A stretch of DNA of 58,664 nucleotides from a virus. Lineage: Duplodnaviria; Caudoviricetes. Of this stretch, positions 31,431 to 47,050 are shown in pieces. The position numbers were made by a program, and so were the translations under genes. Below the pieces are notes generated by a model. That model was not told where the DNA came from and searched no databases. It worked only from the letters and a program-made list of their open reading frames with translations. Position 1 is the stretch's first letter, and each line of letters opens with the position of its first letter. The stretch spans positions 1 through 58,664 of the IMG/VR virus record IMGVR_UViG_3300049725_000037; one strand, 5' to 3'.

Positions 31431-33262
31431 CGGTCATCATACAGGCGGGCCATCGCGAAATCCTTCGTGGCGGTGACGTCGAGGGTCTGGCCGATGTGCT
31501 TCAGGCACCATGCGTCAATCACTTCGCGAGCCCGGATCGACTCATTCACGTCGCGTTGCGGACCCACCCGGGCCGTGAATATCTTCACCGTCTTGCCCCG
31601 GGCAATCCAGTTTTTCACCCGTGCCACCATCGCCGGCACCGGATCGCCGATCTTGTCGATTCCACCCCATTTGCCGTAGCTGGCGAGAGTGCCGTCAAGG
31701 TCGACGCCGATCCAGCCCGAGAGTGATTGCCGTGCCGGCGCGCCACCAGGGAATCCGAGCGCGGTGAGAGCGGCCAGCACCTGCCCGACCGTCACGGAAC
31801 GGATGCACGTCCCGTCGCCTTCGACACGAGTTTTCCCCGTCGACGTGTTCCGCACCCCGTAATCGGTTCCATCCTTGCGGCCGACAACGCCTGCGTGAAT
31901 GGAGCCCTTCGTCATCACAAACTCAGGCAGGGAGCCCCCGAAGATTCCGACCGCCGTAGTCCCGACCGCCTGCGCGACATGGAGAGGCATGCTGTCGATC
32001 CCAATGAAAAGCCCGCACCGGCTGAGCACGGCCGCGAGCGTTCCGATGGTCGTCCGCCCGATGAGCGAGAGGTCGCACGGCACAGACACCGACTCCCCAC
32101 CGACCAGGATAACCCGCCAGCCGAGTTTCCGCAGGCCATTAGCAAGAAAGATGAAGTTTTGGATCGGCCAGTCCCGGCAGGCCCAGTGGGTCGGCCCGCA
32201 GTGGATCGCGCACCAGCATCCGTCGGATTCTCCATCCTCCTCCTCCATGGCGGAATCCGCCCATGCCGCCTGCTCGCGCGTGAAATAGATCTCCGTCAGG
32301 TGCTCGATCGGTCCGGCCAGACCAGCGGCCTCGGCGTAGGCGTCGATGTAGTGCCGACCCGGCCGGTTCTCATAGGCCATGTCGAGGTCGATCACCCAGG
32401 CATCCCGGGGGATGACCGCCGGCGCCGGGGTCGCATAGGGATGATTCGCGAGAACATCCGGAACGAGGGTCTTGTAGTGGATGGGACAGAGCGGCCACTC
32501 GGCATGAAGCCTGCGGATCAGCGCCGTTGTGAGCAGCACGTCGCCAAAGGCCCCCGCGCGCTTGATCACGATGGGGAAATCCATCCGGCGGGCCTTCAGG
32601 TACGGCGCCCACACCTTGCAGAGCACGGAATGGTTCTCCCTCCAGATGTTCTCGATGCCGGGAACCATCTTCGAAGTCTGCCCCCCATGGTGGAACACGT
32701 TGATCCGGACCGCGTGGATCGTGTACCCGATCCGGCGCATGCGGAGCGACAGGTCGGAATCCTCGCCGTAGGCGAAATGCAGATACGGGGCGAACAGACC
32801 ATGCTTGCGCACGATTGACGCCTTCGCCATGAGACACGCCCCGTCGACATATTCGAGCTTCGCCCCGCCACGGCCGTAGAAGTTGTCCTGGAGTTCGCAG
32901 CAGCACCCCTCGCGGCCGACCAGGGCCGCCGTCGGATTCATCTTGAACGCCGCCTCCATCACCTGAAGCCAGCCGGCCGGAACCTCCGTGTCGTTGTTCA
33001 GCATCACGAAGTACTCCCCGCCGGCAACGTCCAGGGCCATCTTATTCGGTTCCTCGAAGCCGAGGTTGCTCGGATAGTGAACCACCCGCACGTTGGCGTT
33101 CTCCCGGACAACCGTGTCGAAGAACGCGCCCACGCCGTCCGTGGATCCGTTGTCGCTCAGGATCAATTCGAAGTCGTCCCCACTGTTTGCCAGCACCGTT
33201 GACAGGCACCGCCGCGTCAGGTCGAGGTTGTTGAACGCCAGGATGGAGATTGAGAACTTCAT
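31352..33262 (-). CDS. Triple fusion: GT2 glycosyltransferase + GT9-like glycosyltransferase + HAD phosphatase
   Basis: SDNGSTDG, LNNDT, YGEDSDL (GT2); GAFGDVLL, FIGIDSMPLHVAQAVG (GT9); WIGVDLDGTLA...YDDR (HAD). Confidence 0.85.
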   Translation of the reverse strand: MKFSISILAFNNLDLTRRCLSTVLANSGDDFELILSDNGSTDGVGAFFDTVVRENANVRVVHYPSNLGFEEPNKMALDVAGGEYFVMLNNDTEVPAGWLQVMEAAFKMNPTAALVGREGCCCELQDNFYGRGGAKLEYVDGACLMAKASIVRKHGLFAPYLHFAYGEDSDLSLRMRRIGYTIHAVRINVFHHGGQTSKMVPGIENIWRENHSVLCKVWAPYLKARRMDFPIVIKRAGAFGDVLLTTALIRRLHAEWPLCPIHYKTLVPDVLANHPYATPAPAVIPRDAWVIDLDMAYENRPGRHYIDAYAEAAGLAGPIEHLTEIYFTREQAAWADSAMEEEDGESDGCWCAIHCGPTHWACRDWPIQNFIFLANGLRKLGWRVILVGGESVSVPCDLSLIGRTTIGTLAAVLSRCGLFIGIDSMPLHVAQAVGTTAVGIFGGSLPEFVMTKGSIHAGVVGRKDGTDYGVRNTSTGKTRVEGDGTCIRSVTVGQVLAALTALGFPGGAPARQSLSGWIGVDLDGTLASYGKWGGIDKIGDPVPAMVARVKNWIARGKTVKIFTARVGPQRDVNESIRAREVIDAWCLKHIGQTLDVTATKDFAMARLYDDRCVTVETNTGRILTWKPSLAHPPSTP

Positions 33263-33687
33263 TTGGTGGGAAGCCTGCGCATGTCCTTGCAGGACTCGAA
33301 GCCGAGCTTCGCGTAGAATGTCATGCTGTTGCGGGTCGCCAGCCGGCAGGCCGTACCTTTCACCGCGTCATGCCGGATGACGCGCGCCATGAGAAAGCTC
33401 CCGAGGCCCTTCCCCCGAAGCTCCTTGTCGATCACCACGTCGCAGAGCCATGAGAAGGTCGCGCAATCCGACACCACCCGGGCAAACCCAACCTGTTTAC
33501 TGGTCGCCGACTCATAGAGCCCGAAGCAGATCGACGGCGGGGCAAGCGACCGGAGGATGACCGCATCGCTCCGCCAGGCCCCGAAGTAGGTCTGCTGGAT
33601 TGTCCGCGTGATCCAAACGACGTCCAGCAACGCAGCATCCGTGCTGACGAAGAACTGTGACGGCGGATCCTGGTCGATCTCGTTCAT
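33259..33687 (-). CDS. GNAT-family N-acetyltransferase
   Basis: QVGFARVVSD...LCDVVIDKELRGKGLG...FYAKLGF; ATG at 33687. Confidence 0.9.
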   Translation of the reverse strand: MNEIDQDPPSQFFVSTDAALLDVVWITRTIQQTYFGAWRSDAVILRSLAPPSICFGLYESATSKQVGFARVVSDCATFSWLCDVVIDKELRGKGLGSFLMARVIRHDAVKGTACRLATRNSMTFYAKLGFESCKDMRRLPTK

Positions 33688-34292
33688 TCCCGCTTCTCCC
33701 ATCCGTCGAGCGGCACGCAGTACGCCATGTTGGCGAAGATCGCCTGCGGCATCAGGCGCTTCTCGATGATCGCCGGCTGCACCCCGGGCCCGTGGTGAAG
33801 ATCGAAGTCATCGAAGAAGAAGTGCCGCACCCCAAGACGCTGACCGAGCTCGATGTCCGCCGCCACGTCCTCCCGCATGTGCCCGCCGTCAATGAAGATC
33901 GCGGCAGGCCGGCAGCCCGCAAGGAACTCGTCTGTCAACTCCCGCCGGAACTTGAACTCGAACCGCGATCCGAATTGCTCCCGCACCGCCGCCACCCCAG
34001 CCCGCAGCAAGGGATCGTTCTCCCGGACGTCCACGCTCGTCACCCGCTCCACCCCGAGGTTCAGCCAGAGCATCGACGAGTGCCCAAGGTTGAACCCGAT
34101 CTCCAGCAGGTGAACCGGATGAACAAGATTCAGGAACAGCCGGAACTTGTTCACGTTCGGCGCCCCGCAGTGGTACGGCGTCAGTTCACTGCGCTTCGGT
34201 AGCATCGCCGTCCACTTCGCGAAGTCCGCCGCATCCGCCTCCGTCGAGAAGTACGTCGTCTTGAAAAACCAGTCGTTCGGGTCGAAGCTCAT
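33684..34292 (-). CDS. Class I SAM-dependent methyltransferase (Methyltransf_24-like)
   Basis: LLEIGFNLGHSS, IFIDGGH, FFDD; ATG at 34292. Confidence 0.85.
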   Translation of the reverse strand: MSFDPNDWFFKTTYFSTEADAADFAKWTAMLPKRSELTPYHCGAPNVNKFRLFLNLVHPVHLLEIGFNLGHSSMLWLNLGVERVTSVDVRENDPLLRAGVAAVREQFGSRFEFKFRRELTDEFLAGCRPAAIFIDGGHMREDVAADIELGQRLGVRHFFFDDFDLHHGPGVQPAIIEKRLMPQAIFANMAYCVPLDGWEKRE

Positions 34293-35047
34293 GGCTCGTA
34301 CCCCCGCGCCCGCAGCCATTCGTGGATCGCCGCCGGATGCTCCCCCTTGAACTCGTCCAGCTTCAGATCCCCGTGAATCAGGCTCCACCAGGGGGCGCCC
34401 GTCGCCTCCGCCTCCGTCAGCCGCGGGTCATACGTCCCAAGCACCGCCTCGTGCATCACCTTCGACTTCGCGAAGAACGCCGCCGGCCGCCGCAAAAACC
34501 CGTAGTGGTACACGTTCAACCCCTCCACCCACTTCGCCCGGCTGTGCACCTCCATGTCCCGCGGATCCGGTTCGTCCGACACCATCCACAACGCCGTCGG
34601 CGCAAGCCGCGCCACCCGCCAGCCGCAGATGTATCCCCGCGGGATCGTGTGCTGAGCGTCCCGCCAGAAGTTCCACCGGTCGAAGTACCGGCAGCCACCC
34701 TCCTCCACCGCCGCCCGGATCAGCGCATGCGACTCCACCCCGATCAGTTCATCCGCGTCGAGCGTGATCTGCATGTCGAACTGCGCCGACTCCCGGATGA
34801 AGTTCAGCCACTTCGGCAGAAACTGCCCATCCTTGTGCGGGTCCGGCCAGGGACGGTTCATCACCCGGATCTTCCCCTCCACCACGGACAACGCCTCCAT
34901 CGCCTCCCGCGTCCCGTCCGTCGAATCAGAATCGCACAGGATCAACTCGTCCACCACCGGCAGAAGCGACCGCGCCGCCTCGATCCAGCAGTAGTCCAGC
35001 GAAAGCCCGTTTCGCACCGGAATGTATCCCGTCAGTCCATGCTTCAT
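34289..35047 (-). CDS. GT2 glycosyltransferase
   Basis: DELILCDSDSTDGT, LDADE, VYHYGF. Confidence 0.85.
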   Translation of the reverse strand: MKHGLTGYIPVRNGLSLDYCWIEAARSLLPVVDELILCDSDSTDGTREAMEALSVVEGKIRVMNRPWPDPHKDGQFLPKWLNFIRESAQFDMQITLDADELIGVESHALIRAAVEEGGCRYFDRWNFWRDAQHTIPRGYICGWRVARLAPTALWMVSDEPDPRDMEVHSRAKWVEGLNVYHYGFLRRPAAFFAKSKVMHEAVLGTYDPRLTEAEATGAPWWSLIHGDLKLDEFKGEHPAAIHEWLRARGYEP

Positions 35048-35193
35048 AGTTTTGCCTTCCGCCTCTTCATCTTCAACGCCCGCAAAAACGCAAGCCCCCG
35101 GTAATACTCCCGGTCACCGCGCACCTTCGACTTCCCGCGAGCACGGCCGCCAATGCGCCCCCACACCGCCAGATATTGGCTCGTGCGCTTCAT
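35044..35193 (-). CDS. 49-aa basic peptide
   Basis: Manual translation MKRTSQYLAVWGRIGGRARGKSKVRGDREYYRGL...; ATGA overlap with the GT2 start. Confidence 0.5.
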   Translation of the reverse strand: MKRTSQYLAVWGRIGGRARGKSKVRGDREYYRGLAFLRALKMKRRKAKL

Positions 35194-35199
35194 GCACAA

Positions 35200-35547
35200 T
35201 CAGAGTTGAATCGCCCCCCGCAGGTCCGAGATCTGCGCGCACAGGCATTCGATCTGCCGCGTGTGATCCTCGATGATACCCAGAACCTGAGTCGGCAGGG
35301 GTGCGGGGCATTCTCCGGGGGTTGGACTGACGGGCCCTAGATCCACGAGAGGTTGGCACTTCACCCGAAGTTCTTGAAACTGCCCAAACGCTTCGTTGAT
35401 CATCTTCTCCTGCCCCTCCAGCACAGTGAGAATCGTCTTCTTGGATGGTGCCGTCGCTCCTTCAGGATAATCCCTCGATGAAACAAGGACCGCAGCACCG
35501 CTGCGCGTCCGCCTTTCTTCTGCAATTGCCATTAGGTGGTTTTTCAT
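35200..35547 (-). CDS. Hypothetical protein
   Basis: 115 aa, packed between neighbours. Confidence 0.6.
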   Translation of the reverse strand: MKNHLMAIAEERRTRSGAAVLVSSRDYPEGATAPSKKTILTVLEGQEKMINEAFGQFQELRVKCQPLVDLGPVSPTPGECPAPLPTQVLGIIEDHTRQIECLCAQISDLRGAIQL

Positions 35548-35549
35548 AG

Positions 35550-35774
35550 CTAAGGTATCTCCAGGCTCAACGGCATCCGCTTCTGCCGCTCCCGCATCCG
35601 CTTCGCCATCTTCTCTTTGTTCGTGTAGTCACTCCCCCGCACCCGCGTCCCCGGCTGCGCCAGCGCCATCTTCCCCCGCGCCATCAGCCATTCCCGGTCG
35701 TACCGCGTCAGCGCCGGTATTTCCACCGCCATCGCGTGACGCTCCAGCAGCCGCAGAAACCCCAGGTCGATCAT
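35550..35774 (-). CDS. Hypothetical protein
   Basis: 74 aa; ATGA overlap with the upstream GT9 gene. Confidence 0.6.
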   Translation of the reverse strand: MIDLGFLRLLERHAMAVEIPALTRYDREWLMARGKMALAQPGTRVRGSDYTNKEKMAKRMRERQKRMPLSLEIP

Positions 35775-36931
35775 GGCCGCAGCCTTTCCACCGCCGCGAA
35801 GATCCGGCCAACCCCCGGCACCTGCACGATCCGTGTCTTCCCCTCGCCGGCCGGCACCTCCCGAGACTCCGTCCCGCCGTTCCAGCGCATCTCCTCACAC
35901 TGCCCCGTCTTCGCGCACGGCCCGTTCTCCGGGTAGTGCATCGGGTTCTTCGGCCAGTGGTGACACGGCGCCAGCGGGCACTTCCCCGACGTCAGGGCGA
36001 ACGTCCGACGGTAGAACCGCGTCCGCAGCATCCAGGACTCCGACCCGTACAACGCCACCGCCGGCAGTCCCAGGGCGCCCGCAACGTGCGTCCAGACTGA
36101 ATCCGGGGCGAGCACCGCGTCCGACGTCGCCACCACGGCCGCCGACTCCCGGAAGCTCAGCCGATCATGCGCGCAATTTATGACCCCCATCGACAAATCC
36201 TCACGGCTGTTCTCGCCCGGCACCGTCCCCGGCAGGCCGAGCAGCATCACCTCCCAGCCGCGACCCGTCAGCTTGCCCACGAGCTGCTTGGTCAGGTCCA
36301 GCGGGTACGACCGCGCCGCAGCGGAGCCGAACACCTGCAGGGCCAGCCTGGGCCGCGCGCTCCGCGGATACCGCAGGAGGATCGCCTCCCGCTCGAGCTC
36401 GGACACGCAGAACGCCGGCACCCGAGCCGCGTCCGCCTCCGGCAGCTCGATCCCGGCCGCCCGGGCAAAGGCATCCGCCGCGTGCAGCCGCGTCGCGTCC
36501 GGTCCGTACTCGGTCGCTCCTTCGAGGGGGATGACCACGTCGTACTCCTTCAGCCGATCCGCCGGCAGCGGGTATGGCTCGATCGCGTCGGGATACGGCA
36601 TGCCTCGGAACACCTCGGCGCCGCCCGGCGCGCAGGACACCGCGACAACGCTCTCCGGCCATCGGTGCTTGATCTCCCGGACCACGCAGCCGACGAACAT
36701 CAAGGCGCCCAGGCCGCCGGGCCGGATGAGCAGCACGCGACCAGGAGCGCAGCCGGCGGAGAGGATGCCTGTGCCAACTACGGTGTTGACCCGAGCGGTC
36801 CCCGGCGTGGAGAGGTAGGCGAGCTCCCATGCGTTGCGGTCCTCGACCAAGTAGGAGCCGGGCTCCAGGGAGGATGGATCTCCGGTCGGCGAGGTGTAGG
36901 CGAGATGTGCGGACAGCGTCAGCAGATGCAC
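35771..36931 (-). CDS. GT9-like (heptosyltransferase-like) glycosyltransferase
   Basis: RVLLIRPGGLG, VLAPDSVWTHVAGALGLPAVALYG, CPLAPCH; GTG at 36931 chosen within ORF 35771..37147. Confidence 0.8.
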   Translation of the reverse strand: MHLLTLSAHLAYTSPTGDPSSLEPGSYLVEDRNAWELAYLSTPGTARVNTVVGTGILSAGCAPGRVLLIRPGGLGALMFVGCVVREIKHRWPESVVAVSCAPGGAEVFRGMPYPDAIEPYPLPADRLKEYDVVIPLEGATEYGPDATRLHAADAFARAAGIELPEADAARVPAFCVSELEREAILLRYPRSARPRLALQVFGSAAARSYPLDLTKQLVGKLTGRGWEVMLLGLPGTVPGENSREDLSMGVINCAHDRLSFRESAAVVATSDAVLAPDSVWTHVAGALGLPAVALYGSESWMLRTRFYRRTFALTSGKCPLAPCHHWPKNPMHYPENGPCAKTGQCEEMRWNGGTESREVPAGEGKTRIVQVPGVGRIFAAVERLRP

Positions 36932-37240
36932 GAGCCCCAGTGAGAGCAGCTTACGCCGGAGCGCAAGCCTTTTCTGGGGCAGAAGAAAGCCGGCGGTCAC
37001 GCCTATGACGCGCCGCCGGCCCTCAACGAGAAGACACCAAACCAACTGAGGCGAGGATGGGGCAGATGGCGGCCGGATGTCGAGAGAAAACACATCCCTA
37101 GACGGTCTAGGTGTCTGTCGCACAATGTCTAATCTGTCTAATCGCAAACACTTGCAACTCGCGAGCGCAAGCCTATTTGCACAAAAACGCAGAATTATTG
37201 AACGCGCCAGCTTTTGTAACTCGTTGGTAATCGTCGAAAA

Positions 37241-37760: not shown

Positions 37761-37946
37761 CCGCCAACGCCAACGTAGCCTTTCGCCATGCCACGCCGCC
37801 TATAGCGGCGGTGGCAAGTGGCGAAGATGGCGAGGAATGGCGAGGAATTGGCATGCCAAAGGCACGAGTTGGCGAGAGGTTTTCATAGGTAAAAGGCAAA
37901 TTGAGCCAACTCCGGCCAAGCCATAGATAATGGGATAATGCCAACT
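37761..37946. repeat. Cluster of TGGC(G)A / TCGCCA short repeats around a palindrome (possible origin, pac or operator array)
   Basis: TGGC at 37812, 37819, 37828, 37838, 37849, 37870; GCCA copies on both flanks; imperfect palindrome TGCCAC-GCCGC-CTATA-GCGGC-G-GTGGCA at 37789-37816. Confidence 0.55.
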
Positions 37947-37966
37947 CAGGACAACGAAATCCAGAA

Positions 37967-37996
37967 TTGACACCCAAAAAAGGGGTGATATTGGTT
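37967..37996 (+). promoter_or_regulatory. Probable early promoter with operator-like inverted repeat
   Basis: Perfect TTGACA at 37967; CACCC-N7-GGGTG overlapping the spacer; weak -10; lies just upstream of the first plus-strand gene. Confidence 0.45.
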
Positions 37997-38001
37997 GGGT
38001 A

Positions 38002-38484
38002 ATGAAAGGCTATATCATGGTCACTGTGAGTGAGGCGGAGCTCGACGCATGGGAGCGGGCTCGGTGGGAATGGGCGAAGACGCGGGCAGGCCGGCGGGGC
38101 ATGGCGACGTGGTGCCGGCATGTTTGTTCGGCGGCGGCTGGGGTGGCTGTGCCGAGCGTTGGGTATGTGCGGCGGGCGAACGATCCGCACCCCAAGGATC
38201 CGGTGACTGACTGCGCAGCGGTGGTGCGGGCGGTGAAGGATCTGACGGGTGCGCGGCGGCATGGCGGGGCGGCGCGGACAAGCGAGATCATCGCGCAGCT
38301 GGAGAACCGGGCGGAAGGTTGGAGCGCGCGGACGATCGCGAGGCGCCTAGGCGAGGCGGTTCGGGCTGGGTTGCTGGCGACAGGCCCGCGTGGCAGCTAC
38401 TGGGTGACGGAGCGGGGCATGACCGGGGCTGCAGTGGAGATCGCGGAAGCCGCGCCGTCCGTGCCGGCCTCCCTGGAACTGTAG
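38002..38484 (+). CDS. DNA-binding protein with C-terminal winged HTH
   Basis: RTSEIIAQL...SARTIARRLGEAVRAGLL...PRGSYWVT; paralogous to the C-terminus of 52373..54088. Confidence 0.7.
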   Translation: MKGYIMVTVSEAELDAWERARWEWAKTRAGRRGMATWCRHVCSAAAGVAVPSVGYVRRANDPHPKDPVTDCAAVVRAVKDLTGARRHGGAARTSEIIAQLENRAEGWSARTIARRLGEAVRAGLLATGPRGSYWVTERGMTGAAVEIAEAAPSVPASLEL

Positions 38485-38626
38485 TCCCGCCCCGGATACG
38501 ATCGAATAAAATCCGCGCAGGCTCCGAGGTGGGATCAACGGCTTGCGGATGTGTCGTCAAAAAGAATACGTTTTTTCTCGACTCGCGGTGGTGGTGGGTT
38601 AGGGTGTGTCCCGTCAACCGAACCCA

Positions 38627-39079
38627 ATGAAAATCTACAACCTCAGCCTGCATTACGAATTTGTTCGCGAAGACCCATCGGAAAGAGTCGATTCGCCAGA
38701 GAGAATCGCGGCATACATGCAAGACGCCTTTGCGATCAACCCAGAGCAGGAATCGCTCTGGGTCATCATCCTTGACCGAAAGAACCAGCCGAAAGGCCGG
38801 ATCATGGTCACGCTCGGCACAGCTACCGGAAGCCTTGTTCATCCGCGTGAAGTGTTCCGGCCCGCAATTCTCGGCTCGGCGTGCGCGATCGTTGTCTGCC
38901 ACAATCATCCCAGCGGCGATCCGGCGCCAAGTGCTGCGGACATGCAAGTGACCCGGCGTTTGCGCGAGGCGGCCATCGCCATCGACATCGACTTGCTTGA
39001 CCATGTGATTTGCGGCAACAAAACCGGCGATCCGGCTGGTCGCGGTTATTACAGCTTCCGCGAAGCAGGAACGCTTTGA
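38627..39079 (+). CDS. radC: RadC-like JAB domain protein
   Basis: VHPREVFRPAI, HNHPSGDPAPSAAD, LLDHVI. Confidence 0.92.
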   Translation: MKIYNLSLHYEFVREDPSERVDSPERIAAYMQDAFAINPEQESLWVIILDRKNQPKGRIMVTLGTATGSLVHPREVFRPAILGSACAIVVCHNHPSGDPAPSAADMQVTRRLREAAIAIDIDLLDHVICGNKTGDPAGRGYYSFREAGTL

Positions 39080-39090
39080 ACCTACCCCAC

Positions 39091-39160
39091 CGCCCGGAGC
39101 GATCCGGGCGCTTGCTCCGCCTTACCCGCGACGGGCCGGGCGAACCAAGCGAGTCAACCA
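39091..39160 (+). ncRNA. Two-hairpin structured leader element, copy A
   Basis: CGCCCGGA-GCGA-TCCGGGCG, then CGCC-TTA-CCCG-CGA-CGGG-CCG-GGCG, then AGTCAACCA. Confidence 0.55.
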
Positions 39161-39177
39161 TTCAACCACAGACCCCC

Positions 39178-39360
39178 ATGACAATCCTGAACATCATCAC
39201 CTACACGCAGCAAGACTCAGCCGGCAACATCCACGAGATCGAGCAGCGTCTGTCTCGCGGCTACAAGCTGACGCGCCGGGGTGCGCTGCGGATCATCAAA
39301 GCCGCAGGCGTCCGTGCTCTGTCAGTGATCCGCGTCGAGACCTTTATCGACGAGCGTTAA
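39178..39360 (+). CDS. Small early hypothetical protein (60 aa)
   Basis: ATG after a C-rich leader; within ORF 39010..39360. Confidence 0.65.
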   Translation: MTILNIITYTQQDSAGNIHEIEQRLSRGYKLTRRGALRIIKAAGVRALSVIRVETFIDER

Positions 39361-39381
39361 ACATCCAGACACCCCCCACCC

Positions 39382-39870
39382 ATGAAGACACCCACCACCT
39401 CACCCACCACGCCGGCAGCGCAGGCGACGCCGACGCCGTGGAGCATTCAAGAGCGCGCCGACGGCCTCGGCTCCTTGGTGAATCGTAACTCCCTTGAGAT
39501 TGTCCACAACTACTTGCCCGCAGGCGGGCAGCAAGTTATCGTCGGAAAACACACTGGTATTGACTGCCTCACGCCAGCCAACGCGGCCTTGATCGTCGAG
39601 TCCGTGAACTCCCACGCCGGGCTGGTCGCGCGGGTCGCGGAGCTTACCCATGCGCTGGACCGGACCGCAGGAAGGCTCGAAACCGTGCTGCGATACCATG
39701 CGGCAAAAGGCTCGATCAATTGCGCGGTACCGATCGACGTGATGATCGCAACTCACCCCGATTTGGTTGCCGCCCGTGCAACGCTGAAGGGAGGCGCGAA
39801 GTCGAGCAAGCCTCGGCCCTATCTGCCTCTGATAGATGAGGTATGCGAGCAGGCGGCGCAGGGAGCCTGA
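39382..39870 (+). CDS. Early hypothetical protein
   Basis: TPTPW...ANAALIVESVNSH motif recalled from phage early proteins. Confidence 0.75.
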   Translation: MKTPTTSPTTPAAQATPTPWSIQERADGLGSLVNRNSLEIVHNYLPAGGQQVIVGKHTGIDCLTPANAALIVESVNSHAGLVARVAELTHALDRTAGRLETVLRYHAAKGSINCAVPIDVMIATHPDLVAARATLKGGAKSSKPRPYLPLIDEVCEQAAQGA

Positions 39871-39878
39871 CGACCGCC

Positions 39879-39950
39879 CGCCCGGCTGCGGCCGGGCGCT
39901 GGCTCGGGCTTACCGCGAATGCGGCCGGCCCGGTCCAACGAAGTCAACCA
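39879..39950 (+). ncRNA. Two-hairpin structured leader element, copy B
   Basis: CGCCCGGC-TGCG-GCCGGGCG, then CGGGC-TTA-CCGC-GAAT-GCGG-CCG-GCCCG, then AGTCAACCA. Confidence 0.55.
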
Positions 39951-39968
39951 CGAAACCAAATCGACCCC

Positions 39969-40244
39969 ATGACCGCCGAAGCCTACCTTGCCAGCCTGCG
40001 CCGCCCAGGCGAAACGATCCTCTCATGCGAGGACCGGCGCTTGGCCGAGCGGGCCGACCACTTGGCCGGGGTCGCGCTGCCGGCTCTGCGCGTGATCTGC
40101 TCGTGGTGCCGCCGGGAAATGCCGCCGGTGCCGTGTCTGCCGGCCCACGCGGGGCAGGTGGGTCACACGATCTGCCCGGAGTGCCGGGCGAAGTATTTCC
40201 CCTCAACTGTCAGACAACCAGAACCCCCATGCTCAACGCCCTGA
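39969..40244 (+). CDS. Small zinc-binding protein
   Basis: ICSWC...GHTICPEC. Confidence 0.65.
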   Translation: MTAEAYLASLRRPGETILSCEDRRLAERADHLAGVALPALRVICSWCRREMPPVPCLPAHAGQVGHTICPECRAKYFPSTVRQPEPPCSTP

Positions 40245-40372
40245 AAATCACCCTCGCCATCGTCTGCTTCCTCGGCCTCTGCGGCCTGGTCGGCGCCTGG
40301 CTGTTTGCCGTGCTCGACGTCCGGCCGCTGCCCGATGATCCCAACGCGGACCGCGCGGATGACTCTCCATAG
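40229..40372 (+). CDS. 47-aa single-TM membrane peptide
   Basis: MLNALKITLAIVCFLGLCGLVGAWLFAVL; C-rich leader. Confidence 0.55.
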   Translation: MLNALKITLAIVCFLGLCGLVGAWLFAVLDVRPLPDDPNADRADDSP

Positions 40373-40402
40373 TGACGGGCAAACGCTCGCCACGCCCTAC
40401 AA

Positions 40403-40451
40403 CCGGCCCCCGCGTTGCCTCAGAATAGAGCGCCGGGGCCGGCTTCTTTTT
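40403..40451 (+). terminator. Possible terminator
   Basis: CCGGCCCC...GGGGCCGG followed by CTTCTTTTT; loop is long. Confidence 0.35.
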
Positions 40452-40503
40452 GCCCACCGAAATATCTTGCAATCGTATGCAAACGCATTCAAACACTGAA
40501 CCC

Positions 40504-40797
40504 ATGCCTTCCTCGTGTGACCCGATGGAGACGGTCCTGCCCGTCCGCATCACCTCCGAAATGGCCGACGTGCTGAAGCAAATCGGCGCTCACACCGGCT
40601 CGACGGTCTCGACCGTGATCCGGATTGCGCTCCGGAAGGGCGCCCAGGCGGCTTGTGACGCGCTCTGCGTCGCCAACGACCGGCCGTTTTTGACTCTCAG
40701 ACTCGAAACGCTCAACCAACAAAAGCCATGTCCGACACCCAATCCATGCCCGAAGCAACAGAAGCCCCGCCCGCCGAAAATCCGGCCGGGCAAGTAG
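40504..40797 (+). CDS. Ribbon-helix-helix-like regulator
   Basis: VLPVRITSEMADVLKQIGAHTGSTVSTVIRIALRKG. Confidence 0.6.
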   Translation: MPSSCDPMETVLPVRITSEMADVLKQIGAHTGSTVSTVIRIALRKGAQAACDALCVANDRPFLTLRLETLNQQKPCPTPNPCPKQQKPRPPKIRPGK

Positions 40798-42266
40798 AGA
40801 CACGCGGCGCCCGCGCGCTGCAGATACGCGAACAGCAGCCGCCGTTGCTGGCGAAGTTCGAGGCGGCCAGCACGCAGGAGAAGATCCGCGCGCTGCTGCC
40901 CTCGACCCTGTCCTTTGACCGGTTCGCCCGGCTGACCGTCGGACTCATCTACCGGCAGCCCGAGCTGTCCGAGTGCGACCCGGTATCCTTCTTCAGCTGC
41001 CTCTCTGACTGCGCTCTCATCGGTATCTATCCCGAGGCGGTCACCGGCAAGTGCTACCTCATTCCGAGGTGGAACAAGAAGCTGAAGCGGAAGGTATGCA
41101 CCCTCTTGGTGGGCTACAAGGGCTTGCGCGAGATCGCCCTGCGCTCGCCTGAGATCCTGGACCTATGGACCGGCGTGGTCCGCAACGGCGACACCTTCCG
41201 CATTATCCGGGCGCCGCGGCAGGAGCTGCAGCACGAGCCGATGCCGCAGGAAACAGGGGAGATCGTCGGTATCTACTCCATCGCGGCCCTGCGCAACGGG
41301 CTGACGTCGTTCGAGTGGATGACCATTGGCGACCTGGAGAAGGTCAGGAACCAGAGCCAGGCCGGGCTCGAAGCATGGCAGGTCGAGAGCTCGCCCTGGT
41401 CGACCTGGTTCACAGAGATGGCCCGGAAGACGGTTTTCCGCCGGCATTTCAAGTCTTTGCCGATCCGGTCTGAGGATCAGGAGGTGCTCACCAAGGAGGC
41501 GGAAGGCGAGGAACGGGCGATCAAGAACGTGACCGCGACCGTCGAAGGCCCGTCCGAACCGTCCGGGGAAGCCCCCGCTAGCCGTCCTGAGATGCCCGCG
41601 CGCCGCGGTGGGGCCCGGGCGGTAGCGGAGGCCGCGCAACCGGCCTTGCCAGCCCCGTCCGAACCGTCCGGGACGCCCGAGGAGGCACCCAAGCCGGAAC
41701 CCGCCAAACCGACGGCGCCGGCCGCAGGGGTATCAACACCCGCACCGACCCGCCGGAGGCCCGCAGCGGCCACGGTAGCCCCTGCCACACCCCCGCCGGC
41801 GGAATCATCGCCCCCGGCAGCGGTGGAAGCGGCGAAAACCGTTTCCAAGACCGTTTCCACGCCACCCCCGGCCGCATCCGGCCCCATCGGCGAGAAGTCG
41901 AAGTGCCCGGAGATCGCGCCCGGCGTGACCCTGGCCGGTTTTCACGGCAAGGCGTGGCCCCAGGTGATCCAATTCGAGGTTGTTGAGGCCGTCGCGGCAC
42001 CGTATGGCTCGAAGTCCGCCCTGGTGGACATCAAGGTCACGGCGGACGGCTACAAGGGCCATGTGTTCTGCATGGAGGGCGCTGCGCTGAACGAACAGGG
42101 TGCTCCGATGCTGACATCGAAGATCCTGAAGCCCGGCGCGCTCCTCGAGGCCAACTGGAACGCGGTGCCCAGGTCGACGGGCGGCGTGACCAACTACACC
42201 CGGCCGCCGGTGATCGTGATTTCGGCGATCGATGTGCAGAAGGAAGACAGCCCCTTCAGAGGGTAA
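40728..42266 (+). CDS. recT: RecT-family recombinase with Pro-rich linker and extra C-terminal domain
   Basis: PELSECDPVSF, CYLIPR, GYKGLREIALRS, PWSTWFTEMARKTVFRRHFKSLP. Confidence 0.9.
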   Translation: MSDTQSMPEATEAPPAENPAGQVETRGARALQIREQQPPLLAKFEAASTQEKIRALLPSTLSFDRFARLTVGLIYRQPELSECDPVSFFSCLSDCALIGIYPEAVTGKCYLIPRWNKKLKRKVCTLLVGYKGLREIALRSPEILDLWTGVVRNGDTFRIIRAPRQELQHEPMPQETGEIVGIYSIAALRNGLTSFEWMTIGDLEKVRNQSQAGLEAWQVESSPWSTWFTEMARKTVFRRHFKSLPIRSEDQEVLTKEAEGEERAIKNVTATVEGPSEPSGEAPASRPEMPARRGGARAVAEAAQPALPAPSEPSGTPEEAPKPEPAKPTAPAAGVSTPAPTRRRPAAATVAPATPPPAESSPPAAVEAAKTVSKTVSTPPPAASGPIGEKSKCPEIAPGVTLAGFHGKAWPQVIQFEVVEAVAAPYGSKSALVDIKVTADGYKGHVFCMEGAALNEQGAPMLTSKILKPGALLEANWNAVPRSTGGVTNYTRPPVIVISAIDVQKEDSPFRG

Positions 42267-42267
42267 A

Positions 42268-42540
42268 ATGAAGCGCACTATCATCATACAGCAGGCCGAT
42301 GACGGATGGTACAACGTCATCCTTGGGGACCGGTTCAGCGGCTCCTTGTCGTGGGATGAGTGCCTTGGGGTCATCGCCCACCTTCTTGTCGGAGGGCCAG
42401 CTTCCGACGTTCCGTTGCGCGGGCGGATGGAAACGATTGATGAAATGGAGCATCGGCTGACAGCCGAGATCCGCACTGAAGTGGAAAGGGATCTGCGGCC
42501 CGTCGACCGATTATTGCTCGCAGCAAAACGAAAGGCTTAA
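42268..42540 (+). CDS. Hypothetical protein
   Basis: 90 aa between recT and the next gene; 'LSWDECLG' motif. Confidence 0.65.
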   Translation: MKRTIIIQQADDGWYNVILGDRFSGSLSWDECLGVIAHLLVGGPASDVPLRGRMETIDEMEHRLTAEIRTEVERDLRPVDRLLLAAKRKA

Positions 42541-42541
42541 C

Positions 42542-43354
42542 ATGAGCACCATTGACCTTGAAGTCGTCCAGAACATGCCGCCGATGCCGCTGCTGGTGGT
42601 TGGCGGCGATACCCTGGCCCGCATCGACACCCTTGCAGCCTCGGCCAAGACGCTGACCATCGCGACCGCGGCAGACGCGGATCGATGCGCAAGCATCATG
42701 CGGCAGGCCGCGGACTTGGCGTCGGCGATCGAACTGACGCGCGTTGCGCTGAAGGCCCCGGTTTTGGAGCTGGGGCGGAAGATCGACGCCGCGGCGGCAG
42801 GCCCGCTGGAGAAGCTGCGCGCGGTCCGGGCGGCGGTGGACGGCCAGTTACGCCAGTGGGCAGCGGCCGAGCAGAGGAGGCTGGCTGAAGAGACCCGCCG
42901 GCGGCAGGAAGAGGCTGACCGGATCGCGGCTGAGCGAGTCCGGGTCGAGAAGGAGCGTGTCCGGCTGGCTGAGGAGGAAGCAGCGCGTCAGCGGCTTGCT
43001 GCTGAGAGCCCGGAGGCACCCGAGGCACCCGAGGAACCGGAGTTGTTCGAGGATTTCTCTGACATCGCCGTGTCATCGAACGCGAACCAGGCCGCGGAAC
43101 TTGCCCACCAGGAAGCGGCGCTGCAGGCCCCGGCGCCCGTCTTCGTCCGGCCCGCCGGCGTGACATTCCGGACGACGCTCAAGTTCGAGGTGACGAATCT
43201 CGACGCCCTGCCGAAGATCTACGTGACGCGCACGGTCAACGAGGTCGCAATCCGCTCGACGTGCTGCACGGGATGGAAAGAGGGGATGGCACTGCCGATC
43301 GTGCCGGGCATCCGGTTCTACGCGCAGAAGGATCCGATCACAGCCAGACGCTAA
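42542..43354 (+). CDS. Coiled-coil phage protein of the recombination module
   Basis: RVALKAPVLELGRKID...FEVTNLDALP...VPGIRFY pattern. Confidence 0.75.
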   Translation: MSTIDLEVVQNMPPMPLLVVGGDTLARIDTLAASAKTLTIATAADADRCASIMRQAADLASAIELTRVALKAPVLELGRKIDAAAAGPLEKLRAVRAAVDGQLRQWAAAEQRRLAEETRRRQEEADRIAAERVRVEKERVRLAEEEAARQRLAAESPEAPEAPEEPELFEDFSDIAVSSNANQAAELAHQEAALQAPAPVFVRPAGVTFRTTLKFEVTNLDALPKIYVTRTVNEVAIRSTCCTGWKEGMALPIVPGIRFYAQKDPITARR

Positions 43355-43361
43355 TCCTCCC

Positions 43362-43733
43362 ATGACCCCCCGCATCACCGCCCGCCCACGCGCGCAGAAG
43401 CCGCGCAAACCTACCGCGAGTAATCTTCCCAGAGTGATGTGGTTTGCCCCACGATGGGAAATCTGCCTAACAGAATCCGAGAAACTTGAGGCCACTGAGA
43501 CTCAAAACGGTAAAGTGACCGTAGAGCCCATCAAGGTCATCGTGCTCGACCTCTCTCCCGACTCGCTGGCCGCGCTGCAAGAGCGCGTGGCGAGGGCGAT
43601 CTATGAAGCCTCACCATACATGCAGCCGAACGGCTGGGCACTCGCCACTCCAGAGAAGAAGCAATTGGGCCTCATGTACGCCCGCGCGGCACTCGCCGCC
43701 ATCAGCCGCCACCTAACACCGCACGCGAAATGA
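43362..43733 (+). CDS. Hypothetical protein
   Basis: 123 aa; ERVARAIYEA motif; ATGA overlap with the next gene. Confidence 0.7.
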   Translation: MTPRITARPRAQKPRKPTASNLPRVMWFAPRWEICLTESEKLEATETQNGKVTVEPIKVIVLDLSPDSLAALQERVARAIYEASPYMQPNGWALATPEKKQLGLMYARAALAAISRHLTPHAK

Positions 43734-43908
43734 GCCGCACGACGATCAACTACGTGGACTACAGTTTCAATCCGTGGATCGGCTGCACGCTGGTCTCTCC
43801 GGGGTGTCAACACTGCTTTGCAGAACGGTATGGCCGACGCTTTGGCGTTGCGTGGGGTCCGGGGAAGCCCCGTCGCCGCACGAGCGCCGCGAACTGCCCG
43901 CGCCCTGA
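43730..43908 (+). pseudogene. Internally deleted DUF5131 (Gp37Gp68-like) gene
   Basis: FNPWIGCTLVSPGCQHCFAE...RRRTSAAN then breaks off; RELPAP-stop follows in another frame. Confidence 0.7.
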
Positions 43909-43918
43909 CTTTCCCACC

Positions 43919-44152
43919 ATGATAAACTACTCAGCAGTCAATAGAGGAGACATCCTGAAAATCGTTGGCGTTGGCGCTCCCGGCTACGCGCAACTCGGAG
44001 ATTTGGTTCGCGTGACCGAAATCCACGCCAATTCTGTGTCGGTCGAGAACCGCGACGGACATCCCTGCGAGTTCATATATAATTGCGGTGCGGCACGCTT
44101 GGAACCGACTGAATGGAAGAACGATTTCCCAGTCACTCCACCTACCGCTTGA
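43919..44152 (+). CDS. Small hypothetical protein (77 aa)
   Basis: Own ATG after TTTCCCACC leader, in frame with the DUF5131 remnant. Confidence 0.65.
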   Translation: MINYSAVNRGDILKIVGVGAPGYAQLGDLVRVTEIHANSVSVENRDGHPCEFIYNCGAARLEPTEWKNDFPVTPPTA

Positions 44153-44162
44153 ACCTTTCGCC

Positions 44163-44486
44163 ATGAAAGTCATAACTGCTGGTCATAAATACGAACTCGA
44201 TCACTTCGAGTCATACGGGTTGCCGGGAGTTCCTGTGCAGACCCTTCAGTTCATCGAAAAGGTTCCGGTTACCGAAGGCTCGACGGAACTCCGCACCGTC
44301 AACGACGGAACCACCAACGAGGAAGTCCTTCGCGTTTTGGTGGACCGACTCAACTACCTTCAAGCGAAATTCCCGTGCCGTGAGAACGCGCTTGCGATCA
44401 CGAAACTGGAAGAGGCGCAGCATTGGCTGGCCCATCGCACCGCCAACCGCAAGGCGCGTGGCGTCGAAGGTAAGTCAACCGCCTGA
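44163..44486 (+). CDS. tad1: Tad1-like anti-defence (nucleotide signal sponge) protein
   Basis: GHKY...QF...GTTNEEVLRVLVDRLNYLQAKFPCRENALAITKLEEAQHWL..RT..R..RGVEG matches the Tad1 pattern as recalled. Confidence 0.7.
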   Translation: MKVITAGHKYELDHFESYGLPGVPVQTLQFIEKVPVTEGSTELRTVNDGTTNEEVLRVLVDRLNYLQAKFPCRENALAITKLEEAQHWLAHRTANRKARGVEGKSTA

Positions 44487-44522
44487 ACAGGCTGACAGCC
44501 GGGAAAGACCGGCACCCTTTCA

Positions 44523-44753
44523 ATGGCCTATTCCGATGCCTACCAAGCCAAGCGATGCGCCACTCTGAGGCGCGTCCGGTCTTTCCTGATCGCCCACCCC
44601 GGATCGACAAACGATGAAATCCAAGCGGCTTGCGATGGTGGCCCGATGGCCCTTCAGGAACGCGGACTCGCTTACTGGACGCGAAACGCCGCAGGCAAAG
44701 CCGTCTGGTTTGCAAAGCCGGGACTGGCGTACCCACCAAAGCCCGCGCCCTGA
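44523..44753 (+). CDS. Small HTH-like protein
   Basis: 76 aa; VRSFLIAHPGSTNDEI. Confidence 0.55.
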   Translation: MAYSDAYQAKRCATLRRVRSFLIAHPGSTNDEIQAACDGGPMALQERGLAYWTRNAAGKAVWFAKPGLAYPPKPAP

Positions 44754-44779
44754 CCACCAAAGCAATCCACGAACTCACC

Positions 44780-45088
44780 ATGAGCACAAACGACCCCGCG
44801 ATCACCCGCGACAACCAGCCTCCAGCACCGTATGGCGTGATGGATATTACTGCGGATGAACTCACCCGCCTTCGCGCCAACCTTGCCGAGATTTCCCGCC
44901 ACGCCGGAATCGAGGTCTTTGAGGCGAATGAGGAGGTGTTGAAGCTGACCACCGAACTTGCCGCAGCCAAAGCTGCCCACCTAGAATCCGAGAAACAACT
45001 GCGCTGTTGGCAAGATAAGTACGCCTCCGTCACAACCGAGCGGGACGCGCTGCTTGCCGAGCGGGACGCGCTGCTTGCCGAGCGGTGA
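44780..45088 (+). CDS. Coiled-coil hypothetical protein ending in ERDALLA x2
   Basis: ATG at 44780; 21-bp tandem repeat near the 3' end. Confidence 0.6.
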   Translation: MSTNDPAITRDNQPPAPYGVMDITADELTRLRANLAEISRHAGIEVFEANEEVLKLTTELAAAKAAHLESEKQLRCWQDKYASVTTERDALLAERDALLAER

Positions 45089-45133
45089 CGCATGAGAGAA
45101 AATAGCCTTTTTCACTTTCTCACCCTAAATCCA

Positions 45134-45469
45134 ATGAAATCAAAAGTTCAAATTCACTACCGCCAGGGCGATGTGCTGATTGAGCGCGTTCCCTCTCTGC
45201 CCGCAAATCGAACGAAGCTCGCGCGTGAAAACGGCCGCGTGATCCTCGCTCATGGCGAGGTCACCGGCCACGCCCATGCGATCTCCGCTGCCAACGCCGA
45301 TCTCTATTCGGCGGTCGATTCCGGAGATGTGACCTTCCTCGAAATCCGGGACGCCATGGTCGAACTCGAGCACGATGAGCATGCCACGGTGACGCTCCCG
45401 CCAGGCAATTACGTCGTGCGACGTCAGCGCGAATACACCCCGGAGGAAATTCGCCGTGTCGCAGACTAA
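45134..45469 (+). CDS. Conserved His-motif protein (RQGDV...GEVTGHAH...HDEH...RRQREY), copy 1
   Basis: Motifs recalled as the usual partner of DUF6745 genes. Confidence 0.85.
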
Positions 45470-46502
45470 TTACAGTCCGGAAGTCCAGGCATTGCTCGAT
45501 CGCCACGCGACGGCTTGCGAGCTGAAGATGCCGGTTGATCGCGAGCGCATCGCCGATCGCTTGACGGCCTGTCTGGCGGGCGTTTCGCGAGAAAAGTTGC
45601 AGGTCCGCTTCCTCGACCGAGCCGATGAAATCAGCTCGGTCGTCATAAAGGCCAGGGCTGCCTGGGATGCCAGGGCTGCCAGGGATGCCAGGGATGCCTG
45701 GGCTGCCAGGGCTGCCTGGGATGCCAGGGCTGCCAGGGATGCCAGGGCTGCCTGGGATGCCAGGGCTGCCAGGGCTGCCAGGGCTGCCAGGGCTGCCTGG
45801 GATGCCAGGGCTGCCTGGGCTGCCTGGGATGCCTGGGATGCCTGGGATGCCAGGGCTGCCTGGGATGCCTGGGATGCCTGGACTGCCAGTTGGGATTGCA
45901 GTTGGTTGCCCGTAATTTCGATCGGTGCGCTAGAGCGCGCCGACAGAAAGCTGCACAGCATTTGGCTGCCTCTGCTGGAGGCATTCGAGGCTGGCGCCTG
46001 GCTATTCTGGATTACGGCGGACGAACTGGTGGTCGCCGAGCGTCCCTCTGCGGTACGCACCGACGATCGCCGGCGTCTACATCATGCGTCCGAGCCGGCG
46101 TTTTCCTGGCTCAGCGATATCCGCGAGTTCTATATTCACGGCGTCCATGTTCCGAGCTACATCATCGAGCAGCCGGAAACGATCACCATTACCGAGATCG
46201 AATCGGAACGAAATGCCGAGGTGCGACGGGTGATGATCGAGCGTTACGGCCGGGCGCGGTTCTTGACCGAGTCCGGGGCCGCTCAGATCCATGCCGATGA
46301 TTTCGGGATTCTCTACAGGAAGGAGGTCACTGGAGATGAGCCAATCGTGATGGTGAAGGTGATAAACGCCACGCCGGACCCGGCTGGCACGTTCAAAGAC
46401 TACTTCCTGCGCGTTCCTCCGACGATGCGGACGGCCCGCGAGGCGGTCGCCTGGACGTTCGAGAAGGAAGCCGACGCTTATGCGCCGGCAGTCCAAACAT
46501 GA
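45456..46502 (+). CDS. DUF6745-like protein with A(R/W)(A/D) repeats, copy 1
   Basis: [13 protein letters not shown]...[41 protein letters not shown]. Confidence 0.8.
45651..45884 (+). repeat. 9-bp coding minisatellite GCC(A/T)GGG(C/A)T, 25 units plus 1 degenerate, copy 1
   Basis: Read directly; encodes ARA/ARD/AWA/AWD. Confidence 0.95.
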
Positions 46503-46554
46503 TCAGGGAAACCGATCTTTTCGGCGCCGGCCGGCACGGCGCATCCGGCAAGCC

Positions 46555-46686
46555 ATGAAACCTACTTTCCGCTGCTCGGAACTCGGTCAAGTCCTCTGGT
46601 GCCCCGGCTCGAAGGCGCTTGGGGCCAAGGGTCACAACCGAGCGGGACGCGCTGCTTGCCGAGCGGTGACGCATGAGAGAAAATAG
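46555..46686 (+). pseudogene. Truncated 5' copy of the Cas4-like nuclease gene at the duplication junction
   Basis: MKPTFRCSELGQVLWCPGSKALGAK identical to the start of 48136..49284, then diverges at 46631. Confidence 0.85.
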
Positions 46687-46714
46687 CCTTTTTCACTTTC
46701 TCACCCTAAATCCA

Positions 46715-47050
46715 ATGAAATCAAAAGTTCAAATTCACTACCGCCAGGGCGATGTGCTGATTGAGCGCGTTCCCTCTCTGCCCGCAAATCGAACGAAGCT
46801 CGCGCGTGAAAACGGCCGCGTGATCCTCGCTCATGGCGAGGTCACCGGCCACGCCCATGCGATCTCCGCTGCCAACGCCGATCTCTATTCGGCGGTCGAT
46901 TCCGGAGATGTGACCTTCCTCGAAATCCGGGACGCCATGGTCGAACTCGAGCACGATGAGCATGCCACGGTGACGCTCCCGCCAGGCAATTACGTCGTGC
47001 GACGTCAGCGCGAATACACCCCGGAGGAAATTCGCCGTGTCGCAGACTAA
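46715..47050 (+). CDS. Conserved His-motif protein, copy 2
   Basis: Translation identical to 45134..45469. Confidence 0.8.

Follow-up and report, generated by a model that had tools for sequence, protein, structure and literature searches.

In phage T7, RNase III processing signals lie between the early genes, and RNase III is the textbook agent for processing of this kind. The nut sites of lambda-type phages consist of boxA and boxB, the loop of boxB being the conserved part that is read by the N protein, and an integron attC site forms a single long, imperfect palindrome that is bounded at its two ends by inverted core sites and has an integron integrase in its vicinity. Nut sites are also mentioned in excerpts of PMC11658703 and PMC4496710. 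For E. coli RNase III, the part of PMC1540722 drawn on here describes substrates that span about two helical turns, a length that stacked short helices can make up, as well as internal loops that confine cutting to one strand and hairpins that shield the RNase III product from 3' exonucleases. The put RNA of phage HK022, in the excerpted account of PMC9378689, is about 70 nt long with two bulged stem-loops, and occurs in two copies (putL and putR) that share sequence. According to the same excerpt, one site lies in each early operon, shortly past the early promoter, and the RNA binds the zinc-binding domain of the RNA polymerase beta-prime subunit and suppresses downstream terminators. Promoter-early stem-loop (PeSL) cassettes are known from T4-type phages (PMC4122927). 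Here we describe a structured unit that is present in two copies between early genes of an uncultured peat podophage of 58.6 kb, represented by the IMG/VR virus record IMGVR_UViG_3300049725_000037; this whole stretch of 58,664 bp is referred to below as the window.

The unit belongs in kind to the punctuation hairpins known from phage early operons, and its function we infer. It is best read, with a probability that we judge somewhat short of even, as an intercistronic module that would punctuate the messenger RNA through processing or stability, in the manner of the T7 RNase III sites. Like those sites, it recurs as hairpins between the cistrons of an early operon and contains a helix with an internal loop, and its structure is kept between copies while the stem sequence differs; a 3' hairpin left on the upstream cistron would also protect that cistron. 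Unlike them, it has an 18-layer hairpin 2 with an inner stem of 4 bp and an extra perfect tetraloop hairpin in front, and it shows no sequence relation to the T7 sites. Cleavage here is putative, and the probable verrucomicrobial host may have RNase III rules of its own.

A repeated two-hairpin unit between early genes

The two copies of this intergenic unit (39090-39182 and 39878-39973, both on the + strand) are about 95 nt long each and lie at a distance of 788 bp. Local alignment of the two neighbourhoods gave a score of 61, whereas 200 shuffles averaged 21.5 and did not exceed 32, and the copies are ~80% identical over ~95 bp with a longest exact run of ~10-14 nt. Both follow the same order: an 8-bp GC tetraloop hairpin (hairpin 1), a bulged hairpin of 39-40 nt (hairpin 2), an unpaired C/A-rich leader and the next ATG. 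The 5' border of the unit lies ~10 nt past a stop codon (RadC TGA at 39077-39079; orf162 TGA at 39868-39870), hairpin 1 beginning 11 nt past the RadC stop in copy 1 and 8 nt past the orf162 stop in copy 2. The 3' border is position +5 of the next open reading frame (ORF), i.e., the homology runs through ATGAC, and it ends sharply at the gene borders. The copies set apart three groups of early genes, and the gaps that they fill, the only two of 98 nt inside the early + strand operon, stand out in its first 2.4 kb, where the other genes are tightly packed. An earlier note, made from the letters of this DNA, had delimited the element at 39091-39160 and 39879-39950; these segments are real, but the unit is longer. 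The same note had placed the copies in early leaders, a description that does not hold, as they lie 1.1 and 1.9 kb past the presumed promoter region (~37966-38001), each in the interval from the stop codon of one gene to the start of the following one.

We built a covariance model from copy 1 alone, using a hand-drawn structure, and ran it over the whole window on both strands without filters. The model scored 109.7 bits on copy 1 and 41.6 bits on copy 2 (E ~1e-9). The next best matches were the reverse strands of both loci (17.4 and 13.1 bits), and the remaining 30 of the 34 listed matches scored 10.4 bits or less. Since the model matches nothing else in the window, the unit is present in exactly two copies; pattern scans agree with this filter-free scan that the window holds no third copy. 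These results show that the two-copy structured intercistronic unit is real.

Hairpin 1 of copy 1 (39091-39110, + strand) is a GC-rich stem of 8 bp closed by a GCGA loop of the GNRA pattern, and that of copy 2 (39879-39898, + strand) has a C-G closing pair and a UGCG loop of the UNCG pattern. The stem reads CGCCCGG followed by A in copy 1 or C in copy 2, so that seven of the eight pairs are identical. The closing pair (A-U in copy 1 vs C-G in copy 2) has changed together with the loop, all four letters of which differ between the copies. Hairpin 2 adjoins hairpin 1 with no linker in either copy. In copy 1 (39111-39149, + strand) it is composed of an outer stem of 4 bp, a C/C mismatch, a middle stem of seven positions (one of them C.A), a 2x2 internal loop UA/CC, an inner stem of 4 bp and a CGA loop. 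In copy 2 (39899-39938, + strand) it keeps the register of copy 1, the UA/CC loop and the C mismatch (here C/U), with five pairs changed on both sides and a GAAU loop. Hairpin 2 thus counts 15 bp, a 1x1 C mismatch and the 2x2 UA/CC loop, i.e., 18 stacked layers, and would total 26 layers if stacked on the 8 bp of hairpin 1.

The hairpin, spacer, second hairpin and tail listed by the earlier note were all found in their places in both copies, and one of them needs correction in detail. The spacer CTTGCT/CTGGCT is present but is not free, because C-U-(U/G)-G within it is paired to C-(A/C)-A-(G/A) of the 3' arm of hairpin 2. At the internal loop described as TTA/CCG, TTA does lie opposite CC(G) between an outer and an inner stem.

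Model-based alignment of the copies requires no gap within either helix. Standard pairs occupy 44 of the 46 pair cells, and both sides have changed in 6 of the 23 pairs between copies 1 and 2. By comparison, slid registers, in which the 3' partners are shifted by 1-3 columns, yield 0-1 double-changed pairs and 27-51% pairing. RNAalifold, run without a supplied structure, returned 20 pairs with six of them compensatory. Single-sequence folds gave minimum free energy z-scores of -3.0 and -2.0 on the + strand and of -1.9 and -1.6 on the - strand. The view of the locus as a structured, covarying repeat, already put forward in the earlier note, is confirmed by the 41.6 bits that the copy-1 model gives to copy 2 and by these double changes. 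The unpaired UA/CC loop, the C mismatch and the leader stay the same from copy to copy and the stems drift, which is the kind of variation shown by a site that a factor reads. Contigs of two DNA runs (X14 and X16) span copy 1 and those of X16 span copy 2 with zero differences, so no additional covariation can be read from them. We also considered a conserved two-state switch and rejected it: the 5' arm of hairpin 1 can pair with 39136-39142 in copy 1, but copy 2 lacks the matching letters.

The 3' part of the unit is an unpaired, C/A-rich leader on the + strand. In copy 1 (39150-39182) it carries AGTCAACCA and ATTCAACCA, followed by GACCCCCATGAC, and the ATG of orf60 at 39178; in copy 2 (39939-39973) AGTCAACCA is followed by AACCA and GACCCCATGAC, and the ATG of orf91 lies at 39969. 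The helix ends 28-30 nt before the ATG in each case. Exact matches to AGTCAACCA number only two in the window (39152-39160 and 39942-39950), and they sit 17-18 nt 5' of the ATGs at 39178 and 39969. A Shine-Dalgarno box is not obvious at most of the starts listed (e.g., 39178, 39382, 39969 and 40229). Such a box is missing at the four starts within 39.1-40.3 kb, which are directly preceded by C residues (...CCCC(C)ATG). Among the 14 CAACCA words of the + strand, five lie 8-25 nt 5' of starts within 39.1-40.8 kb. Because of these C-rich ATG contexts and the placement of CAACCA, the most fitting role for the 3' tail of the unit is that of a translation leader for the gene that follows. Initiation may be independent of a Shine-Dalgarno box in the host, which is probably verrucomicrobial. 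A coding role for the conserved stretch was rejected: frames are open 5' of the ATGs (39010-39360 and 39843-40244), but their translations share only scattered residues, and the only alternative start in copy 1 is a TTG inside RadC.

Proposed punctuation of the early message and competing explanations

From the observed repeat, fold, covariation, intercistronic placement and lack of a U-tract we infer action as RNA, cutting and the identity of the enzyme along the following lines. The two copies would be cis-acting modules of the early polycistronic + strand message, placed between its cistrons. Hairpin 1 would provide a very stable tetraloop hairpin shortly past the upstream stop codon and, together with hairpin 2, would form a rod read by an endoribonuclease or another RNA-binding factor. 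With a cut within hairpin 2 or next to it, the upstream message (RadC, or orf60-orf162) would end in hairpin 1 as a protective 3' cap, and ribosomes would be able to enter at orf60 and orf91 on a C/A-rich leader that is unstructured and kept free of upstream pairing. The placement is consistent with punctuation, as each copy fills the gap from a stop codon to the next start, and the two share a fold with six compensatory pairs. The order of a stable capped hairpin, a bulged helix and an open leader is also as would be expected for such a signal in a polycistronic message.

An RNA of the + strand is favoured by the orientation of the genes, by the stop and start codons that bound the unit, and by the hairpin 1 loops with their changed closing pair. 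GNRA and UNCG are unusually stable classes of RNA tetraloop. On the + strand the two loops (GCGA and UGCG) fit these patterns, whereas on the - strand they read UCGC and CGCA and fit neither; by simple arithmetic, the chance that two random tetraloops both match is ~0.2%.

Several observations weigh against processing or stability as the function. The covariation comes from a single pairwise comparison, between two copies in one phage species, and 10 of 500 column shuffles match the observed pairing and double changes. Pairing alone does not settle the strand: the pair cells comprise 41 Watson-Crick, 3 G.U and 2 mismatched cells on the + strand and 41 Watson-Crick, 2 G.U and 3 mismatched cells on the - strand (43 of 46 paired), and it is the - strand that has the lower consensus folding energy (-44.45 vs -37.85 kcal/mol). 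The conserved arms and free centre of hairpin 1 would also suit a palindromic site for a protein on double-stranded DNA, but such a site would not explain the five double changes in hairpin 2. With its 18 layers, hairpin 2 alone falls short of two helical turns, and 26 layers are reached only if it stacks on hairpin 1. No homologue was found in any of the collections or related genomes searched, which leaves two copies in one phage species. Finally, contigs of two metatranscriptome runs (X17 and X18) start at 39132 and 39162, and none of them spans 38818-39131 or 39759-40787. These contigs have low depth, their starts are 30 nt apart, DNA may be present in the samples, and contigs cannot show RNA ends; their starts are no evidence of a cut or of a transcription start, and cleavage can draw no support from them.

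We considered five other explanations, which are taken here from the better to the less well surviving. In the first, which we regard as unlikely, the unit would be a site on single-stranded DNA of the - strand, used in priming, replication or by a recombinase, or would have no function at all, being the product of a duplication between genes that took place fairly recently and in which only the drift of palindromes preserves the pairing. The - strand folds at least as well as the + strand, and the phage encodes RecT, a PD-(D/E)XK nuclease and DnaB-like helicases. The invariance of the copies in runs X14 and X16 also means that no signal of selection can be read. However, the six double changes that keep pairing, compared to 0-1 in slid registers, are not expected without selection on the fold, and the stable-tetraloop patterns occur on the + strand only. 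Neither iterons, an AT-rich stretch nor an inverted partner copy, as found at known origins or ssi pairs, accompany the unit.

A second explanation, rather unlikely in our estimate, is that of an operator for an RNA-binding protein of phage or host that would control the translation or stability of orf60 and orf91, with the internal loop and the mismatch of hairpin 2 as its recognition surface. The invariance of the unpaired letters over variable stems would suit such an operator, and so would the conservation of the leader up to the ATG and the position of each copy directly 5' of a small gene of unknown function (the basic orf60 and the Cys-rich orf91). Yet the helix stops 28-30 nt 5' of the ATG, and a bound protein would not cover the start. 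No candidate RNA-binding family was recognised in the neighbouring proteins, and the two downstream genes are unrelated to one another.

The third explanation, to which we assign a still lower probability, was suggested by the analogy with HK022 put drawn in the earlier note: a nascent two-hairpin RNA would bind the polymerase as a factor-independent or factor-assisted antiterminator or anti-pause element and let it read through the hairpin at 40403-40452 and later terminators to RecT and the replication genes. The likeness is one of outline, in the two adjacent stem-loops, the length of ~60 nt (59-60, compared with ~70 in put) and the two covarying copies that share sequence, as described for putL and putR in the excerpt of PMC9378689. 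The early region also has terminator-like hairpins with T-runs downstream in the direction of transcription (40403-40452 and 50460-50547), and the ORFs scanned yielded no recognisable protein of the N or Q type. The analogy fails on position: both copies lie between cistrons of a single operon whose presumed start is 1.1 and 1.9 kb away, whereas put occurs once per operon, past the promoter, in the same excerpt of PMC9378689. Compared with the description of put given there, hairpin 1 is perfect and lacks the many bulges and the triplex region of put stem I. Moreover, the homology continues through the start of the next gene, which an RNA that binds polymerase would not need, and no sequence relation of the unit to any RNA catalogued in Rfam was found. 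We consider it improbable that the unit represents a new class of self-sufficient polymerase-modifying RNA, i.e., an intercistronic put-like antiterminator of a Verrucomicrobiota phage, unrelated in sequence to HK022 put, with which each gene group would re-arm the polymerase past the terminators that guard the recombination and replication genes. Similarity to the lambda nut site is limited to a small hairpin in early mRNA 5' of a gene for a small basic protein; in nut the loop of boxB is conserved, whereas here the loop of hairpin 1 differs in four of four letters and its stem is conserved in seven of eight pairs.

Alternatively, hairpin 1 could be a weak or conditional terminator, or an attenuator, that stops part of the polymerases after RadC and orf162 and so grades expression. 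Its GC-rich stem of 8 bp with a stable tetraloop, right past a stop codon, would fit this role, and blastn finds short matches to hairpin 1 in other phages, within segments that carry no annotation and are presumably intergenic. Nevertheless, the unit has no U-tract, with 3 (copy 1) and 2 (copy 2) T among the 8 nt past the stem, and hairpin 1 is absent from the terminator scan, which asks for 5 T of 8; the other terminal hairpins of the genome do have T-runs. Termination would also leave hairpin 2, its covariation and its invariant loop unexplained, and we hold this explanation to be doubtful.

It is equally doubtful that the unit acts as DNA, as a recombination linker similar to PeSLs that would offer a patch of homology for the swap, loss or gain of small accessory genes (orf60-orf162), with the RNA fold being secondary. 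The copies are direct repeats that flank an orphan module of two genes in an accessory early region with RadC-like and Acb2/Tad1-like genes, their homology stops sharply at the gene borders, and PeSLs are presented in the excerpt of PMC4122927 as composite intergenic motifs implicated in such exchange. The unit resembles them as a repeated, composite intergenic stem-loop cassette in an early region rich in small orphan genes, its copies flanking a gene module. It differs in having no promoter-like part, as judged by a scan for sigma-70-like sites only, and in having just two copies, with a second covarying hairpin and a translation leader instead. With an identity of ~80% over ~95 bp and a longest exact run of ~10-14 nt, the copies are poorly suited to homologous exchange. 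No contig in the four runs (two of DNA and two of RNA) joins the copies or lacks the module, no indel or exchange is seen at the copies in these contigs, and no related phage was found with a different module at this site. The earlier note had also proposed a recombination site for gene cassettes that acts as single-stranded DNA, a proposal for which our results offer no support. We found no attC-like core sites and no contig that joins across the 788 bp, and no integrase was found among the 47 ORFs scanned against Pfam, which are part of the ORFs. The unit is also unlike attC in that it consists of two separate hairpins with a 3' tail that has no inverted partner at the 5' end.

A hairpin promoter of the N4 type was rejected, as neither of the two giant virion proteins (2449 and 1232 aa) has a match in Pfam or among PDB sequences, the hairpin loops are of 4 nt and unlike each other, and nothing was found in its support.

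Search for known families and relatives

None of the 4227 families of Rfam 15 matched the window at gathering score, which supports the earlier note, where the element was put forward as a candidate new cis-regulatory RNA, in so far as no Rfam family explains it. With lax filters over 38900-40100, the only matches were to CC0196 (14.5 bits vs a gathering score of 35) and Yfr1 (13.9 vs 38), both on the generic GC hairpin and both at chance level (E of 2.5 and 9.7). The identity of a tRNA or tmRNA was rejected, as the sole call of ARAGORN is one tRNA-Met elsewhere in the genome.

Using blastn against 50,697 phage records, we found nothing for the 1.8 kb around the copies and, for the units alone, only partial matches of 19-38%, mostly GC palindromes. 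Exact-pattern scans of IMG/VR returned no stretch in one case and 15 chance stretches in another (with hairpin 1 in none of the 15). The same type of scan returned four chance stretches in the GTDB species genomes (best model score of 12.4 bits) and four stretches in JGI metagenomes, the best of which reached 17.1 bits and only with insertions of 19-21 nt. Such scans require exact letters, and diverged relatives would escape them; the collections searched were without records very near this genome.

A second covariance model (R2) was built from both copies. It matched none of the 27 viral records (4 + 23) with related RadC, orf162 or portal genes. On five Verrucomicrobiota metagenome-assembled genomes (MAGs) with related portals its best score was 20.3 bits, in alignments without the features of the motif, and on 151 genomes of the order of one of these portal MAGs it gave one match at chance level (22.6 bits; E of 0.05). 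Among 5.8 billion proteins, orf162 retrieved a variant belonging to this phage species (P0002; 88% identity), relatives of 55% or less, and a single partial match, which lies on an 882-bp contig and has 80% identity across a quarter of the query. The locus of the 54% relative from IMG/VR has ordinary short gaps and no element, and scans with P0002 found nothing. RecT led to no close relative, and in the provirus record with a RecT of 51% identity the genes upstream of it are closely spaced. The searches with orf162, RecT and P0002 brought up no related phage whose early region could be compared.

Because there is no Rfam match and no homologue in the phage, viral, metagenome and genome collections, the element is, as far as sequence searches indicate, an uncatalogued orphan with two copies. 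The earlier note had counted a lack of further homologues, together with a lack of effect in a reporter, against the element; of these two observations the former was made, as no further homologues were found.

The phage, its host and the early region

The first 161 bases of the record recur at 58504-58664 with 99% identity, and the record is probably a complete genome that was circularly assembled or is terminally redundant; IMG/VR classes it as linear, and its CheckV completeness estimate is 59%. Portals related to that of the phage (29-46% identity) are found at six loci of species-representative genomes, five of which have Verrucomicrobiota titles (the titles include Didemnitutus, Opitutaceae, Opitutus, Opitutales and Verrucomicrobia). 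Because related portals lie mostly in Verrucomicrobiota genomes, the host is likely a verrucomicrobium. Near-identical DNA is present in runs labelled peat, permafrost, bioreactor and lake water.

The - strand encodes, over ~0.3-37.8 kb, an SU10-type portal, a terminase-like protein, two giant proteins and a block of glycosyltransferases. This block (31352-37147, - strand) contains glycosyltransferases of families 2 and 9 and a heptosyltransferase-like one, along with a methyltransferase-like gene, and lies between the packaging genes and the early region; it is an unusual cargo that may modify the host surface or the virion. The 2449-aa ORF (21292-28641, - strand) has a ParB C-terminal-like stretch at residues 1300-1435. 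ARAGORN calls its tRNA-Met (CAT) at 24252-24323 on the - strand, inside this ORF and on the same strand, so that either the call is false or the giant ORF is not one gene.

All genes at 38002-55478 are on the + strand and belong to the early, recombination and replication functions. They include a weak regulator-like orf160, the RadC-like JAB gene, orf60, orf162, orf91, a 47-aa membrane-like ORF and RecT, as well as genes for a DUF5131 protein, an Acb2/Tad1-hairpin protein, a duplicated DUF6745, a PD-(D/E)XK nuclease and two helicases (DnaB-like). The divergent gap between the two gene blocks (37790-38001) contains TTGACA and direct TGGCGAGGA-like repeats and is likely a control region with operator and promoter sites. 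It also contains a palindrome with a 10-bp stem (37790-37815) and four direct TGGCGA(G/A)GA-like repeats (~37818-37880). The presumed start of the early + strand operon (37966-38001) is a TTGACA stretch before the first + strand gene (38002-38484), whose ATG lies 30 nt 3' of TTGACA; it was recognised by eye and is absent from the promoter scan.

The gene 5' of copy 1 (38606-39079, + strand) encodes a RadC-like JAB-domain protein (PF04002; E of 6e-37). The first gene past copy 1, orf60 (39178-39360, + strand), encodes a small basic protein of no known family. It is followed by orf162 (39382-39870, + strand), which lies between the copies and likewise belongs to no known family. The first gene past copy 2, orf91 (39969-40244, + strand), encodes a small Cys-rich protein (CxxC...CxxC). 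The proteins orf60 and orf91 are unrelated to each other, and in the ESM Atlas they retrieved only phage clusters without names, below 0.9. In run X16, orf162 lacks 19 nt at 39495 and has an insert of the same length behind 39557, and the frame is shifted between the two; this variant appears to correspond to the 88%-identical protein P0002. A hairpin resembling a canonical intrinsic terminator (40403-40452, + strand) followed by CTTCTTTTTG closes the group of small genes, 465 nt past copy 2, and a second T-run hairpin with TCTTTTTT is found in the same operon at 50460-50547.

Two further features of the + strand region were observed. At 44088-44486 (+ strand), a 132-aa protein with an Acb2/Tad1 hairpin domain (PF24729; E of 1.7e-6; 28.5 bits vs a cut-off of 27) is a candidate signal sponge against CBASS or Thoeris encoded in the early region. 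At 45029-48083, a stretch of 1581 bp is duplicated in tandem, with an identity of 100% along 300 nt or more, and both a 125-aa ORF and a 348-aa DUF6745 gene are present in it twice; the DUF6745 genes contain long runs of a 9-nt periodic repeat (~45543-45986 and from 47124).

At present, the value of this orphan two-copy motif is mainly that of a clean and small test object for end-mapping and RNase assays. If the unit were a polymerase modifier, factor-independent antitermination would reach beyond the lambdoid phages. If it is a signal for processing or stability, it would provide one more example, unrelated in sequence, of phages punctuating their long early messages. In that case, this example would come from a phage group and a likely host phylum, the Verrucomicrobiota, for which there was no prior knowledge of mRNA processing or of starts without a Shine-Dalgarno box.

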